The position numbers and the translations under genes were made by a program. The notes beneath the pieces were generated by a model. The model was not told the DNA's origin, searched no databases, and saw only the letters and a list, made by a program, of their open reading frames with translations. Positions 16,970 through 22,178 of a stretch of DNA of 64,000 bases are shown piece by piece. Each line of letters starts with the position of its first letter. Positions within the stretch are counted from its first letter, which is position 1. Origin of the DNA: Alphaproteobacteria bacterium (GTDB taxonomy: Bacteria > Pseudomonadota > Alphaproteobacteria > UBA828). The stretch covers positions 160,001-224,000 of the forward strand of contig CAXXVO010000009.1 in assembly GCA_963422645.2 (NCBI GenBank), written 5' to 3'.

Positions 16970-18472
16970 TCAGGCGACGGCCCGCTTTGCGCGTGCCCAC
17001 TTGCCGCGGGGTTTGCGCGACCTGCGTTCGCAGGACCGGCCGGGGCGCGGGCGCTGACGCGCCTGGTTGATGCAGGAGAGGACATGGCTGAGGGTTTCGG
17101 CGACCATCGCCGTATGGCGCAGCAGCAGCGCTTCGAGGTTGCGCGCGACGGTGGCGAGGCCGTTGCTGAAGTTGGCTTTCATCGCCGGCTTGCCGTCGGC
17201 AGGGCGCTCGGCGTCGAGGCTTGCGTTGCTGCGGTTGGTGAAGAGCCGGGTCATGGCGATGAGGTTGAAGTGGGCGAAGAGCTCCTGGCGGACGCCGCGC
17301 TCGGTCTGGCTGTGGAAGGCCTCGACGGCCATGGCCTGTTTCGAGGTCTTGTAGAGTTCCTCGATTCCCCAGCGCGCGTGATAGAGCTCGGCCAGTTCCG
17401 CGACGCTCCAGGCCTTGGGGTCGAGGAGGGTGGTGGCGAGGATGAAGACCGTGCTGCCGATGCGGTAGCGGACCAGTCGCAGGCGCAGCGGGGTGGCGTC
17501 GACGTGCGGCGTCTTGCGGCGCAGCTTTCTCAGGGTGTCCTTTCCGGGAGCGACGGTGATCGGCGCGTCCGTGCGGCCGTCGGCGATGAAGGCGTCGAGG
17601 GCGGCGCCTGCCTTCTTCTTGATCCGGAACACGGGGTGCAGGCCGCGGGCGACATGGGCGTGCAGCATCTCCCAAGAGTAGTAGCCGCGGTCATAGACCA
17701 CGATGTCGTTGGCCGAGAGCGCCTTGAGGTGGGCGAGGGCGGCCCTTCTTTCGTCGCCGTGCGCGACCAGGTCGAAGTCCACCGGGATGTTCGCGTGCAG
17801 CCGGTAGAGGCAACTCAGCAGGCCCTGCGGGTAGTGGGCCGCCTCGGAGGGCGTGCGGTAGCCGGCCTTGAGCAGCGGCCGCGGCAGGTTGAGCTTGGAG
17901 CCGTCGACCGCGAACACGCGGTGGCCCTTCCAGGCCGGGCCGTCGGCGCGCTTGAGGATCTCGGCGTGCAGCGTCTTGAACACCGCCTCGTCGACCTTGG
18001 CCCGCGCCATGCACATCGCCGAGGCCGAGACCGGCGCCGGCTGCGGCAGTGCGACGCCCAGGACCCGGCACTGCTCCCACAGCCCGGCCAGCGTCGTGGC
18101 GTAGCCCGCGCGGCCGTTCGAGAACGCCAGCCGGAAGATGAAGAGCATGACGAGAAGGGTGTCGAGGACCCGCCGGCGGCTCTGCCACACCCGGTCGTGA
18201 TCGGCGGCCACCGCCGCCAGTGCGCCGATCAGGTCCTGCCACAGCGCCACGAAGGGATCGTCCGGCGCCAGCGCTGCCGGCCGTGTCCTGTTCCCGCGCC
18301 GCGCCGGCCGCGGGCCTTCGAGCAGGATCGAGCGGAAGTCCGGCGTCAGCGGGTAGACGTAGACGCTTTTGCGGGTCTTGCCCTTGCCGCCCCCGGTCTC
18401 GCCGAGACAGCGCCAGTTGGCCGCGCGGTAGCAGGCGCCGTCGAAGAGGCTGGGGTCCACGAAGGTCTCCAC
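16970..18472 (-). pseudogene. 3' part of the DUF4338-IS4 transposase fusion (end of DUF4338 plus IS4 DDE domain)
   Basis: ETFVD...GACYRAANW..LGET (DUF4338 tail), then AVDGS, YDRGY and YHARWGIEELYK (IS4 YREK motif). Confidence 0.85.
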
Positions 18473-18924
18473 GAACGTCACAGACTACTATCTTGCAGGC
18501 TTCCGAGGCTCCTGAGCCCGTTCGCATTCGACGCTACAAGCATCCTTTCGACGGTGAGGCGATCGAGATTCTCGATCGGCGCAAAGGAGGTTACGGGGGC
18601 CGGACTCTGAAGGTTCGGATGCCGGACGGCAGCTGTTGTTGGATACCAGCGGCATGGACGAGCCTTGGAGCCCGTCCCGAGGATGCACCACGCCTGATCG
18701 GAGAGTTGTCTGATTTCCTCACCCTCCTTAATCTTCTGAATGACCTTGATGAGAGGGAACTCAGGCGCGATGGATGCGGAGCAGGAGTTGGCGCTGATCG
18801 CGCTGATGGAGTGGGAGGAGCGCCGGGACCGGTGGCTGGCGTTTCCGGCTCCGGACCGGGATCGCGTCGTGCAGGGTCTGGCCGATCTGATGGTTCGGAT
18901 TGCGGATCGGGAGGCGGCCGATGA
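18473..18924 (+). CDS. DUF5372 (Y4bD/Y4pK)-like accessory ORF, lacking an N-terminal ATG and RBS in the integrated state
   Basis: HPFDG...PDGSCCWIPAAWT motif. The frame is open from the element boundary and its TGA overlaps the recombinase ATG. A possible TTG start lies at 18493. Confidence 0.55.
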
Positions 18925-18961
18925 CGGTCGATCCGTCGAAGATCACCCAGCGTCATCTTGA
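18770..18961 (+). CDS. Small (63 aa) accessory ORF of the recombinase element
   Basis: ATG after GAGAGGGA; helical W...P..DRDRVVQGLADLMVRIA; overlaps the recombinase start. Confidence 0.5.
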   Translation: MDAEQELALIALMEWEERRDRWLAFPAPDRDRVVQGLADLMVRIADREAADDGRSVEDHPASS

Positions 18962-21101
18962 GCGTCTTGCAGTTGTCTACGTTCGCCAGTCGACACCCTT
19001 GCAAGTGAACGCGCACCAGGAATCGCAGCTGCGCCAATACGCGCTTGGCGAGCGTGCCCGGGAGATTGGCTGGCCGGCCGAGCGGATACGGACGATCGAC
19101 GCCGATCTTGGCGAGAGCGCAAGCGAGAAGGCGCGCGGCGAGCGTGGCGGCTTTCGGGAGATGTGCGACCTGATCGCCCGGGACCATGTCGGGGGCATCT
19201 TCGGGATTGAGGTTTCGCGGCTCGCCAGGAACACGATGGAATGGTTTCAGCTTCTCGATCTATGTCGCAGGCACGACACGGTTCTGGTTGAGGACTGCCA
19301 CATCTACTGCCCGAGCCGGGACGACGACTCCCTTGTCCTGGGGATCAAGGGAACCGTGAGCGCCGCTGAGCTGTCTCTTATTCGCGCCCGGATGGAGGGC
19401 GGAAAGCGGAACAAGGCGCTTCGTGGCGAGTTGTACTCGCGCGTTCCGATCGGATTTGTGCGGGATGGCTCGACTTTGCGGAAGGATCCGGATGCCCGGG
19501 TTCAGGCGGCGATTGCAACGGTCTTTGCGCGTTTTCGGCAAGCCGGTTCGGCCCGCCAGGCGACGATGCTGCTGCGTGAGGCGGGCGAGGATGTTCCCTC
19601 TCGCCGGCACCCGGGGGCAGCATTGGAATGGGGCCCGGCGCGCTATGAACGGGTGTACCGCATCCTCACCAACCCGGCGATGGGCGGCGCCTATGCCTAC
19701 GGCTTCAAACGCGGCGTTGGTCACGGTGCGCCGCTGCGGCCGGTCCAGGAGCGCTGGGATATTCTTCAGCCGGAGAAGCATGAGGGATATGTCAGTTGGG
19801 CAGAATGGCTTGAAGTACAGGAGCAGCTGGCCCGCAACCACATGGCTCCGGACGGAGCCCGCGGCGCGGCGCGGGAAGGGTCGGCTCTGCTCCAGGGTCT
19901 CGCGGTCTGCGGCGGCTGCGGATTGCCGATGACCGTCTACTACAGCAAGACGGGCTGGGGGTATGAGTGCCGCAAGCGCGATGCTGCGCGCCGGCGCGGC
20001 GGTTGTTGGTCGACAGGCGGCAAGCGCGTTGATGCGGAAGTTGCCCGTCTGTTTCTCGATGCGGTCACGCCGGCGGGGGTGGAGGCGGCCCGGCAGGCGG
20101 CTTGTGATGTTGCTGAACGCGGCCTGCGCGCGTTGCGCCGTTGGGAGCTGGATCTTGAGCACTGCCGGTACGAGGCGCGGCTTGCCGAGCGGCGCTACAA
20201 GCAGGTCGATCCCGACAACCGTCTGATTGCGGCAACGCTGGAGCGCGAGTGGGAGAAGGCGCTTCGCGCCGAGAAGGCTGCACAGGAAGCGCTTGAGGCG
20301 GCACGGGCGCGTCAGCCCGCGGCCCCTGCCCCGGCGGTTTTCGAGGGTCTCGGCGCGCGCCTGTCGCAGGTCTGGGGGGCGTCGTCGACGACCATGCGCG
20401 AGCGCAAGCGCCTGCTCGCCTGCCTCCTCGACGAGGTGACGATCGAGCTTGCGCGACAGGAGCGTGAGATCATGGCAACATTGCGCTGGCGTGGCGGGCA
20501 GATCGACGAGATCACTTTGCCGATGCTCGCGGGCTCTCCGACACCCCGGCGCGATGAGCGCAGCACGGTCGAGCTCGTGCGCAAGCTGTCATGCTTTTAC
20601 AACGACCGGGAGACCGCGAAGGTTCTCACCCGCCAGGGACGGCGCACAGCACGGGGTCTGGATTTCACGGCCGAGCTTGTTGGCAGCCTGCGTCGCCGCC
20701 ATGGCATTGCGCCCTACCAGCCCGACGGGGACGAGCCGGTGCTCATGGGCGTTGCCGATGTGGCGAAGGAGATCGGAGTCTCGGATGACACCATCTATCG
20801 CTGGATCCGCGAGGGGCTGGTTCCGGTTGCCCAGCCCGATATCGAAGGTGCTCCTCTTCGGATCCGGATGACCCCGACCTTGCGCGAGCGCTTTCGTGAG
20901 GCGCCTCCGGAGGGGTTTGTTCCCCTCGCTGTGGCAATGGATCGTCTGGGTGTCACGCGGCAGACGGTCTGGGAACGGATCAAGGCGGGCAGGCTGGACA
21001 GCTGCCATGTGACCCGCGGCAAGACGCGCGGACTGTATGTGCGTTTGCCGGTCGAGGACGAACTGCCGCTGCTGCGCGGGCTCAACGGTGATGGGGGGTG
21101 A
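18921..21101 (+). CDS. Large serine recombinase (resolvase + recombinase + Zn ribbon + coiled coil + C-terminal HTHs)
   Basis: YVRQST catalytic Ser, EVSRLAR, CGGCG...YEC zinc ribbon, VDPDNRLIAATLE, MerR-like HTH VAKEIGVSDDTIYRWIREG. GGAGG RBS before 18921. Confidence 0.9.
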   Translation: MTVDPSKITQRHLERLAVVYVRQSTPLQVNAHQESQLRQYALGERAREIGWPAERIRTIDADLGESASEKARGERGGFREMCDLIARDHVGGIFGIEVSRLARNTMEWFQLLDLCRRHDTVLVEDCHIYCPSRDDDSLVLGIKGTVSAAELSLIRARMEGGKRNKALRGELYSRVPIGFVRDGSTLRKDPDARVQAAIATVFARFRQAGSARQATMLLREAGEDVPSRRHPGAALEWGPARYERVYRILTNPAMGGAYAYGFKRGVGHGAPLRPVQERWDILQPEKHEGYVSWAEWLEVQEQLARNHMAPDGARGAAREGSALLQGLAVCGGCGLPMTVYYSKTGWGYECRKRDAARRRGGCWSTGGKRVDAEVARLFLDAVTPAGVEAARQAACDVAERGLRALRRWELDLEHCRYEARLAERRYKQVDPDNRLIAATLEREWEKALRAEKAAQEALEAARARQPAAPAPAVFEGLGARLSQVWGASSTTMRERKRLLACLLDEVTIELARQEREIMATLRWRGGQIDEITLPMLAGSPTPRRDERSTVELVRKLSCFYNDRETAKVLTRQGRRTARGLDFTAELVGSLRRRHGIAPYQPDGDEPVLMGVADVAKEIGVSDDTIYRWIREGLVPVAQPDIEGAPLRIRMTPTLRERFREAPPEGFVPLAVAMDRLGVTRQTVWERIKAGRLDSCHVTRGKTRGLYVRLPVEDELPLLRGLNGDGG

Positions 21102-21290
21102 CCATGCCCGGACCGTCAGGCAAAACGCCCGATGCAGATCCGCACCTCCAACGTGCGATACTGGAAAATCACGTCCGGCACGATGTAAAGGTCGCCGCGG
21201 CGGCAACAACGGAATCCAAACCGCCTTTTCTATCAATGCGGTAGAAACGCCCGCCCACCTGCACAACGGAGAAGCATTATGAAGCCTTCA

Positions 21291-22008
21291 TCTCCACCAG
21301 AACCGGGCGCGCTCCGAAGCGCGCCTCCCAGTCGCCGGGCAGCTGGCGCAGCGCCATCGACAGCGCTTTCGACGCCAGGTTGTCGACCCGGACCCAGGGA
21401 AAGATCAGGAAACGCGTGTGACCCACGACCAGATCGAGGTGCTTGCGGAAGCCTTCCGCCGGCCACCCGATCCACTCGTCGCGGCAGGGCAGCGTGCGCG
21501 ACGCCCGGGCAAACAGAAGGCAGCCCAGAGGCCGCCCGTGGCGGTCCAGGAGAAAATAGCGCAGATGCGCGCCGACCAGACGATGCAGCCCGAGATAGTG
21601 GTGGCGCGCGACGAACTCGTTCCACAGCCCGCCCTCCTCCTTGCCCGCCGCAATCGACAGGCGCAGCGGCATCAGCGCGGCCAGGTCCTCCGCGATCGCC
21701 GCGGCCGGCGCCGTCCGCTCGCTCCGGGCCATCGCCTCCTGCGGCCCCCGCACCTGCGCCTCGTCCCGCGCCGGCAGGGTCAGGATGCCCAGCCGCTCCA
21801 ACTCCTCCAGCATCCGCAGGCAGACCGCGACACGGTTCCGCCCGCTCGGCGCGCGCCAGTTCAAATGCTCGCAGATCGTGTGCCCGAGCTCGTTGCGGCT
21901 GATCGCCGGAAACAGCGCCACCGTCTCCTGGATGTCGGCAATCTGCCGGCGGGTCAGACGTCTGCCGAAAAAGGTCGTCGACTTCAGCGCGGTGATGCGG
22001 GGGTCCAT
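21291..22008 (-). pseudogene. 5' part of the DUF4338-IS4 transposase fusion (DUF4338/DruA-like domain)
   Basis: LWNEFVARHHYLG, RDEWIGW, RFLIFPWVRVDNLAS, W..RFGARPVLVE. Confidence 0.85.
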
Positions 22009-22039
22009 GGGCCGGCTCCACTGACAGGGGGACAGCCAC

Positions 22040-22068
22040 AGTGTGCCAAAGCACACGCCGCCGGTCAA
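22040..22068 (-). promoter_or_regulatory. Putative sigma70 promoter of the IS4 fusion gene
   Basis: Minus strand TTGACC-N17-CACACT, about 30 bp upstream of ATG 22008. Confidence 0.45.
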
Positions 22069-22178
22069 TCCCCCTCGTGCGGGAAACGCCGAGACCGACA
22101 ATCCACACAAGAAATCAACTCGTTACGACACCACCAAAAAAACCCCGGAACAATCTTCGCGCCAAATGAATGCCATTG

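Follow-up and report, generated by a model that had tools for sequence, protein, structure and literature searches.

How is a gene to be expressed whose reading frame opens at the very border of a mobile element and holds no start codon ahead of its first conserved residues? The question is raised by a 64,000-nucleotide (nt) stretch from an Alphaproteobacteria bacterium (assembly GCA_963422645.2, contig CAXXVO010000009.1, positions 160,001 to 224,000 of the forward strand), which we call the window and number from its first letter. It contains an element bordered by the sequence TCTCCAC at 18466–18472 and again at 21291–21297. The first gene of this element resembles DUF5372 (a domain of unknown function) and lies ahead of a gene for a large serine recombinase; at the opposite end, a ribosome-binding sequence and an ATG point outwards. 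We consider it likely that the element is moved by this recombinase, that the split gene is whole on the excised circle, and that a directionality-type cofactor is made in the circular state only.

Ends of the element and its divided first gene

The features of the element, by window coordinates and strand, are as follows.

18466–18472, plus strand: left copy of the repeat TCTCCAC (core region of the attachment site attL), with the crossover placed within TCTC at 18466–18469 and CAC assigned to the element.
18466–18924, plus strand: open reading frame 1 (ORF1), DUF5372-like, apparently decapitated when integrated; its TGA at 18922–18924 overlaps the recombinase ATG.
18470–18540, plus strand: putative P' arm of attP together with the leader codons of ORF1; no ATG; leader residues 1–18 have a predicted local distance difference test score (pLDDT) of 57–71.
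18541–18765, plus strand: folded part of ORF1, a predicted SH3/Tudor-like beta barrel with a C-terminal helix; predicted recombinase contact.
18770–18961, plus strand: ORF of 63 amino acids (aa) of no known family, overlapping the tail of ORF1 in another frame; conserved in the relatives L028 and L174.
18921–21101, plus strand: large serine recombinase of 726 aa with C-terminal helix-turn-helix (HTH) domains, from Pfam matches.
21102–21267, plus strand: non-coding spacer from the recombinase stop to the right-end Shine-Dalgarno (SD) sequence, unusually long compared with relatives; possible promoter location.
21268–21290, plus strand: outward translation start, with GGAG at 21268–21271, a 7-nt spacer and ATG at 21279; putative P arm of attP.
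21291–21297, plus strand: right copy of the repeat (core region of attR); the bases past TCTC are assigned to the target DNA.

Between the two repeats lie 2818 bp (2825 bp with one repeat copy), in agreement with the initial annotation. A search of the source genome with the 2832-nt element returned 16 matches, which at seven places covered positions 1–2829 or 1–2832 at 100% rounded identity. A BLAST search with 300 nt from either side of the element showed that the same genome holds 13 empty target sites, where left and right flank meet at one TCTCCAC; at the level of sequence, these empty sites prove the boundaries of the window element. We extracted ten left ends and 11 right ends. All ten left junctions read TCTCCAC and were preceded by four different flank sequences sharing only the target motif, while the right junctions read TCTCCAC in eight copies and TCTCGAT in three. 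Because the right ends vary after TCTC and the left ends are constant, we place the exchange inside TCTC and assign CAC to the element. Judged from these junctions, the repeat is an attachment core and not a target duplication. The 7-bp direct repeat that had been described as the border is thus present at both ends and at the empty sites, but the crossover region that the ends share is TCTC only. Terminal inverted repeats are absent from the window element, again as first described, and the joined ends show weak dyad symmetry only, with just 11 of 24 positions matching around the best axis, the second TC.

The joint of an empty site, from 18465 to 21291, was seen in all four public runs, X1, X2, X4 and X5, that were compared with this region as assembled contigs; none of the 18 runs on record is listed as RNA. 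It was the only joint at the element ends in these runs and no go-back joint appeared, although contigs cannot show rare forms. Abutted element ends were likewise absent from the source-genome assembly. The element is site-specific and multicopy, and it is inserted antisense in the transposase gene of another insertion sequence (IS).

The gene content proposed at the outset, a DUF5372-like ORF, a 63-aa ORF and a large serine recombinase with extra HTHs, was borne out by the ORFs and by Pfam. In the recombinase, Resolvase (PF00239) matched residues 17–170 with E 8.5e-17 and Recombinase (PF07508) matched with E 2.4e-10; Zn_ribbon_recom (PF13408) reached 24.1 bits, just below its cut-off of 25.3. 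HTH_17 matched residues 608–649 (E 4.9e-10), with weaker HTH matches near 674–689. The nucleophilic Ser24, in the motif Y-x-R-Q-S, is shared by all 31 recombinases aligned, and the zinc-ribbon residues Cys330, 333, 350 and 362 are also invariant among the aligned proteins. From the sequence pattern and a conserved P431/N433/R434 turn we infer a coiled coil at about residues 395–465. With a catalytic serine domain followed by the Recombinase domain and then a zinc ribbon, the protein is, by its sequence features, a large serine recombinase.

ORF1 matches DUF5372 (PF17342) weakly, with E 0.0023 and 18.3 bits, under the gathering cut-off of 25; the relatives at loci L015 and L130 score 74 bits against the same model. 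It nevertheless shares the DUF5372 residues that are invariant in an eight-row alignment (His26, Pro27, Gly30, Asp54, Gly55, Leu87 and Leu90), and its placement ahead of a large serine recombinase and its end geometry are the same as at bona fide DUF5372 loci. A word-based protein search with ORF1 gave six candidates, none at E ≤ 0.001, and NCBIfam contained no match for ORF1, for the 63-aa ORF or for the L015 protein.

The frame of ORF1 is open from the left boundary and, as had been noted from the sequence, has neither an ATG nor a ribosome-binding site ahead of its conserved motif. No ATG occurs in this frame before the conserved His codon at 18541. TTG 18493 is the sole in-frame canonical start of integrated ORF1, and no purine-rich stretch precedes it. 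The outward SD and ATG at the right end were also found where expected, and ATG 21279 is followed by the first codons of a frame, four of them before the core. Joining the ends in silico through one core reproduced the proposed reading: one open frame of 156 codons, in frame with ORF1, whose TGA overlaps the recombinase ATG at 18921. Beyond about 18745 the joined frame overlaps the 63-aa ORF, and its GC content at third codon positions (GC3) is 0.37–0.50, as against 0.73–0.87 for the 63-aa frame. Because GC3 is low there, the last ~60 codons may not be a functional part of the protein. The ATGA overlap that was suggested to couple ORF1 to the recombinase occurs in the element itself and in L028 and L174, but not in the main family of relatives, where an HTH gene lies in between. 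In that family the tight coupling is reversed, and the recombinase stop adjoins or overlaps the right-end start.

Several further observations concern copies and variants of the element. Damaged copies in the source genome lie at C8:597731-599908, C13:39278-41455, C5:429204-431383 and C8:743582-745761; among them the recombinase has an in-frame TAA in two and is split near residue 484 in two. Several more copies are broken up by additional insertions. Public runs X2, X4 and X5 contained diverged variants of the element within 18505–21088, with substitutions clustered for example at 19942–20003 and 20508–20620, and no variant was reported from these runs in the right-end 200 nt. In the window copy, the frame past the recombinase TGA stays open for 30 more codons (21099–21191), up to a TAA at 21189–21191. 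GC3 of this post-stop frame is 0.76 in windows within 21100–21160 and then 0.62–0.48 near the TAA. The open frame may reflect a recent nonsense change or read-through.

The junction in related elements

Recombinase homologues (E ≤ 1e-30) were present in 11 of 61 related genomes, counting the source, and, within the genus of the source, in nine of 20 other genomes. Where such elements were multicopy, as several were, a comparison of the copies revealed their ends. The G020 element has three copies in three different flanks, all of which start and end with CG. An SD is present at its right end together with an ATG, which lies 14 nt ahead of the core, and across the junction this ATG is in frame with an ORF that is bona fide DUF5372 (Pfam E 6.5e-21). 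The elements at L012, L013, L014 and L023 have the G020 layout, each with an identical dinucleotide at both ends. Copies of the G005 element share extra bases with their flanks; only a model with an 8-nt target rebuilds the end of an IS3-type transposase (Y-N-x-x-R-P-H) from these flanks, and under this model the exchange falls in TTGTA and the right-end ATG is in frame with the left ORF. An empty site with the exact flanks of the G005 element was not found. The closest relative of the window element, L028, has the same target motif, and a metagenome scan with an alignment of the window lineage returned 362 stretches and one relative, L174, which agrees with L028 wherever the two were compared and does not extend far enough to include a right end. 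The multicopy serine-recombinase elements of G009 (L017, L026 and L034) offer a contrast: they have no DUF5372 gene and no right-end start, and the HTH protein encoded by their first gene begins at an ordinary ATG inside the element.

More distant relatives were found with a profile of eight DUF5372 ORFs, which matched in 10 of 401 genomes sampled across the class. In G231a, which belongs to another bacterial family, the layout is kept though the first codons differ. The G229 element sits in IS66 tnpB; the rebuilt gene allows one core, TA, with which the junction is in frame. An 8-nt match considered as the G229 core left stops in the rebuilt TnpB and was rejected.

The largest sample came from a scan of one genome per species with an alignment of the G020 group, which gave 184 stretches, 124 of them confirmed, and from these 80 loci were kept. 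They come from many lineages of Proteobacteria, Acidobacteriota, Gemmatimonadota, Planctomycetota and others. Together with six loci found earlier, 86 main-family loci were examined: one had no DUF motif by pattern, 16 had less than 3400 nt downstream, 12 had no right arm above the score, and 57 were scored. Among the 12 loci that gave no scored right arm, the recombinase is truncated or missing in ten, and the right arms of the other two (L167 and L173) were found by eye. All 57 scored loci have a right-end start codon (36 ATG, 20 GTG and 1 TTG), at the usual position in 55 and at the next codon in two. The junction is in frame in 56 of the 57 and open in 56 of the 57. Counted as distinct junction peptides, the 57 loci reduce to 47, of which 45 are open and in frame.

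The core dinucleotide, of which there are eight types, is equal at both ends in 51 of 56 loci. This equality validates the inferred end geometry independently of the frame, and the ends of the relatives indicate a conservative exchange at a 2-bp core without target duplication. The constant 7-bp repeat length that the initial annotation had envisaged did not hold, the true shared core being 2 bp in most relatives. Longimicrobiales and Thermoanaerobaculia genomes contain 3357-bp elements whose core, by copy comparison, is TT; the right-end start is ATG in the former and GTG in the latter. Three contigs (3333, 3333 and 3395 nt) consist of a whole element, with the core first and with the start codon, 14 nt and the core last. 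The comparison of homologous elements proposed with the initial annotation thus came out in favour of a right-end start in frame with the left ORF, in 56 of 57 main-family loci and also in G005 and G229. The idea that a coding sequence is assembled at the junction is supported by the recurrence of the split layout in at least three other lineages.

Some features of the relatives were noted alongside. Left and right core dinucleotides differ at five of the 56 loci (L096 and L098, from one genome, L124, L143 and L168), as would be expected from recombination between copies or from mutation. Between the DUF5372 gene and the recombinase, the main family encodes a homeodomain-like HTH protein (HTH_32 and HTH_23; 693–1187 in L015), and in the window lineage the 63-aa ORF, unrelated to that protein, occupies this position. 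In G231 (L083–L087) and in L090 of G195, the recombinase ORF extends to the very right end of the element, so that its stop codon comes from the left end in the circle and from flanking DNA when integrated. The G231/G195 element is shared by genomes of two different bacterial families.

Start of translation and possible role of the product

Taken together, the following points weigh against a gene that is completed at the junction. The 57 scored loci are not 57 independent tests, because a fixed attP spacing within one family keeps the frame. L155 has one extra base and is out of frame, and L124 has a stop. In the window's own lineage just one element has both ends available. The TG of the right-end start codon belongs to a half-site motif, TGA, found in both arms, so that the arm-specific parts of this start are the first base of the codon and the SD alone. 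In G314, a copy without an adjacent recombinase, the codon that is ATT in the window is an in-frame internal ATG, five codons ahead of the His codon. G231b (identical with L090 of G195) has no right-end ATG and possibly an internal GTG, and its recombinase ORF itself crosses the joined ends by its last few codons. The 177-nt spacer of the window (21102–21278) is unusual compared with relatives; it is a candidate place for a promoter, and none was recognised in it. Finally, a canonical excision-promoting factor that is made only after excision would be paradoxical.

Some of these points would suit a different account, in which translation of ORF1 in integrated copies begins at an internal or non-canonical codon (TTG 18493, ATT 18526 or the GTG of a Val codon in relatives) and the right-end SD and ATG are merely part of the recombinase binding site, in frame by descent. 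The two arms do form an imperfect inverted repeat, sharing GGTGCAGT..TGA; their spacing is near-invariant, almost every locus having its left-arm motif 46 nt ahead of the His codon; and the Pfam DUF5372 profile begins at the motif Val. The ATG of G314, at the position of the window's ATT, and the missing right-end ATG of G231b fit as well. Yet a conserved internal start, which the initial annotation had named as the observation that would count against it, was not found. The Val codon two before the motif His is GTG, GTA, GTC, GTT or ATC across the family, and in 11 of the 47 distinct integrated copies the stretch from the preceding in-frame stop to the His codon contains no canonical start (ATG, GTG or TTG). 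The window's TTG 18493 is absent from L028, whose leader is 9 nt longer and still in frame. An SD-like 4-mer, moreover, lies upstream of the start in the right arm of 42 of 46 distinct elements, as against 8 of 46 in the mirrored left arm.

Descent with a fixed spacing also does not account for lineages in which the spacing has changed. Four deep lineages with differing geometry and leader length (the window lineage, G005, G229 and the main family) are in frame; with the window counted as the discovery case, the chance of three further in-frame lineages at 1 in 3 each is ~0.04. The leader from core to His codon measures 59 nt at most loci, 56 at L162, L167 and L171, 71 in the window and G314, and 80 in L028, and the leaders of G213 and G424 are one codon longer than that of G005. 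All these differences are multiples of 3, except at L155 with 60 nt. At three loci the start has shifted by one codon: the usual start reads CAG in L122, CAG in L171 and TAG in L167, and the following codon reads GTG, TTG and ATG, respectively. On this evidence we regard translation from an internal start in the integrated state as unlikely.

The beginning of the Pfam model deserves a separate remark. In L015 and L130, profile position 1 of PF17342 falls on the Val that precedes the His-Pro motif by two residues, and gene callers can start DUF5372 at a Val GTG in integrated copies. Because callers see integrated copies only, the Pfam model and the gene calls probably start too late, and the DUF5372 model probably lacks the true N-terminus.

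The right-end start could also serve expression outwards into the flank, through outward promoters or fusions, and have nothing to do with the left ORF. In the integrated state it does read into the flank, and in relatives the recombinase stop overlaps the start, so ribosomes arrive there. In the window and wherever the target of a relative was identified, however, the flank into which the start reads is the antisense strand of a transposase gene; no outward ORF is conserved, and 56 of 57 loci have the start in frame with the left ORF. A function in outward expression seems scarcely credible. The same closeness of recombinase stop and right-end start constrains the transcript. The recombinase stop of relatives either overlaps the right-end start or precedes it by no more than a few tens of nt (16 nt in G005, 27 nt in G229), and in many main-family elements the recombinase frame itself continues through the right arm before it ends. 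Because the stop overlaps or adjoins the start, a DUF5372 message must have its origin within the element and cover the recombinase gene before it crosses the junction. A promoter scan of 18300–21450 returned zero sigma-70-like sites, and Rfam at E ≤ 0.1 gave no match for the spacer region.

We next considered what the completed gene would encode. The AlphaFold model of the ORF1 protein, from a 46-row alignment, has a mean pLDDT of 82.5 and consists of an unstructured leader (residues 1–18, encoded by attP), a barrel of four to five strands and a helix at residues 81–100. Foldseek against the PDB found nothing at E ≤ 0.001; its best matches were SH3, PetP and Tudor domains with E 0.02–0.2 (top 0.022). 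In complex prediction, the ORF1 protein and the recombinase scored 0.71, and the best of three controls scored 0.00. The mark used is reached by 58 of 80 solved complexes and by 2 of 110 mismatched pairs, rates that are only a rough guide here, where the complexes were predicted with our own alignments. The runs agree in at least 78% of contacts, with a partner pLDDT of at least 64. In the predicted interface, the His-Pro motif and the C-terminal helix of ORF1 face recombinase residues 331–335, 381–394 and 466–528, which flank the presumed coiled coil. The ORF1 protein is thus predicted to dock at the junction of zinc ribbon and coiled coil, as directionality factors do. Passages of a 2025 paper describe these factors as binding the coiled coil and/or the second DNA-binding domain (DBD2), and report that AlphaFold-multimer puts known ones at the junction of DBD2 and coiled coil (PMC12286644).

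These predictions also bear on the simplest objection, that the frame match in the window arose by chance (1 in 3) and that ORF1 is a decaying, functionless remnant. The weak Pfam match of 18.3 bits, the word-based protein search without homologues and the non-coding appearance of the tail of the joined frame are what such a remnant would show. Against it stand the confident fold and the passed complex test, the 99–100% identity of the source-genome copies, in which every left and right end is identical, and the alignment of ORF1 with bona fide DUF5372 proteins (relatives at E ~1e-21), with invariant His, Pro, Gly, Asp and Gly. Relatives carry the same split layout as well. We judge a chance match to be very improbable.

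The arrangement that we prefer, a gene split by integration and restored on the circle, can then be put as a sequence of steps. The element's attP would lie inside the 5' end of its own first gene, and an integrated copy would hold that gene in decapitated form. The SD, the start codon and the first four to five codons would be contributed by the right end (P arm) and the remainder of ORF1 by the left end (P' arm). The attL × attR reaction of a serine recombinase necessarily produces a circle in which a single core links the ends. Excision would rejoin the two ends and so create a complete, translatable DUF5372-like gene on the circle. Its product, predicted to be a small beta barrel followed by a helix at the C-terminus, would bind the recombinase at the junction of zinc ribbon and coiled coil, and a directionality-type cofactor would be made in the circle state only. 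We envisage that the recombinase alone may excise rarely and that the circle-only cofactor would then push the enzyme towards integration. As the initial annotation had suggested, the element may in this way possess an excision-state switch that expresses an accessory protein.

The direction in which such a factor would act is the weakest link of this argument. A cofactor made only after excision cannot trigger excision, which favours a role in driving integration or in blocking the reverse step. We offer such a role as a tentative proposal, somewhat against the odds; it would serve the same end as the junction promoter of Tn4451, of which the cofactor would be the equivalent at the level of protein. 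Alternatives are a canonical excision factor that acts in trans on other copies, or a repressor. In an equally tentative generalisation, DUF5372 might represent a widespread class of directionality cofactors, gated by topology through an attP in the gene's 5' end and opposite in sense to the directionality factors of phages. If true, a one-way cycle would be built into a minimal IS-like element.

Insertion targets and comparison with known systems

The gene that the window element interrupts is represented by two further features.

16970–18481, minus strand: distal part (DDE_Tnp_1) of the interrupted host-IS transposase, from Pfam.
21277–22110, minus strand: proximal part (DruA-like, PF14236) of the same transposase, with the element in its V-E-T-F-V codons.

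Because the two gene halves correspond to a DruA-like domain and to DDE_Tnp_1, the target is the transposase of another IS. This transposase is a fusion of a DruA-like (PF14236) N-terminal domain to DDE_Tnp_1, and the host IS is itself multicopy, with 13 further copies in the source genome. Related elements have targets of the same kind: the IS3 motif Y-N-x-x-R-P-H, IS66 TnpB and, in most of the main family, N-(I/V)-F-(V/I)-E-R on the opposite strand. The loci at which targets were read are L016 and L033 (G005), L057 (G213), L093 (G229), L058 (G395) and the left flanks of L094–L173. The related elements always lie antisense to the target transposase gene. By targeting conserved codons of IS3/rve, IS66 and DruA-DDE transposases, these elements would be parasites of parasites with a safe and abundant landing site.

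If the proposed arrangement is true, a mobile element senses its own state by simple means, through a gene that exists only when its DNA is circular. DUF5372, a domain of unknown function, is given a testable role, and the family provides a natural set of quartets of recombinase, cofactor, attP and attB with short, defined sites, as sought for genome engineering with serine integrases. DUF5372 occurred in none of the ~8.4 million texts searched. We found no paper that describes transposase genes as targets of serine-recombinase elements, or an attP at which a coding sequence is assembled, in a search that lay outside subscription journals and supplements, and the layout of the window, junction-dependent expression in a widespread element family, was not found described.

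The nearest parallel is with Tn4451 and Tn4453 (recombinase TnpX), which share with the window element a large serine recombinase, an excised circle and an expression signal that exists only once the ends are joined. Lyras and Rood are said to have described in 2000 that the promoter of the Tn4451 recombinase is assembled where the ends join in the circle. Where Tn4451 assembles a promoter for its recombinase, the window element would join an SD, a start and first codons to a gene without a start; the completed gene encodes an accessory protein instead of the recombinase, and no junction promoter was recognised. Junction promoters formed from abutted ends are also known from the circles or dimers of IS911, IS2, IS30, IS21 and IS110/IS492. 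In those elements the transposase is of the DDE or DEDD type and the parts assembled are –35 and –10 boxes, whereas the window element has a serine recombinase and would assemble a reading frame. A –35/–10 junction promoter of the IS911 type was not found for the window element, in keeping with the absence of sigma-70-like sites from 18300–21450, and relatives leave no room for one, because the recombinase ORF reaches or overlaps the right-end start.

Among other serine-recombinase elements, the IS607 family comprises small multicopy IS without terminal inverted repeats or target duplication. In the small IS607 transposase the HTH comes first and the catalytic domain last; the window recombinase has the reverse order, with its catalytic domain at the N-terminus, and 726 residues. 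The IS607 model NF033518 scored 22.7 bits, against a cut-off of 110, over a 26-residue HTH stretch only, which places the window element outside that family. In skin (SpoIVCA) and the fdxN element (XisF), an element with a large serine recombinase lies inside a gene that excision restores. XisF is the best NCBIfam match of the window recombinase, at 68 bits against a cut-off of 375, and so not an equivalog. Unlike skin and fdxN, the window element is multicopy and interrupts the transposase of another mobile element.

The recombination directionality factors gp3 of phiC31, gp47 of Bxb1 and SprB of SPbeta resemble the putative cofactor in being small proteins encoded beside a recombinase, with the same predicted docking site. 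They differ in that expression in the window element would be gated by the topology of the element and not by a phage programme, and in that the predicted fold is SH3/Tudor-like.

The principle of a gene split by integration has its counterpart in the 'suicidal' integrases of the SSV type, for which a review states, in the passages that treat them, that the recombination site lies inside the gene, that integration splits it and that only the circle has it whole; the same passages give split integrases of this type as found exclusively in archaea (PMC8371274). SSV-type enzymes are tyrosine recombinases that split their own gene, whereas in the window element a bacterial serine recombinase would split the gene of its partner. 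The window element thus falls outside the SSV type, which is defined by an attP in the gene of the recombinase itself and by a tyrosine enzyme. It also differs in that only the start signals and the first codons are parted from the gene. G231b comes closer to the SSV type, with a recombinase ORF that crosses attP by its last few codons. The layout described here would extend the split-by-integration principle, as that review describes it for archaeal tyrosine integrases (PMC8371274), to the serine recombinases of bacteria.

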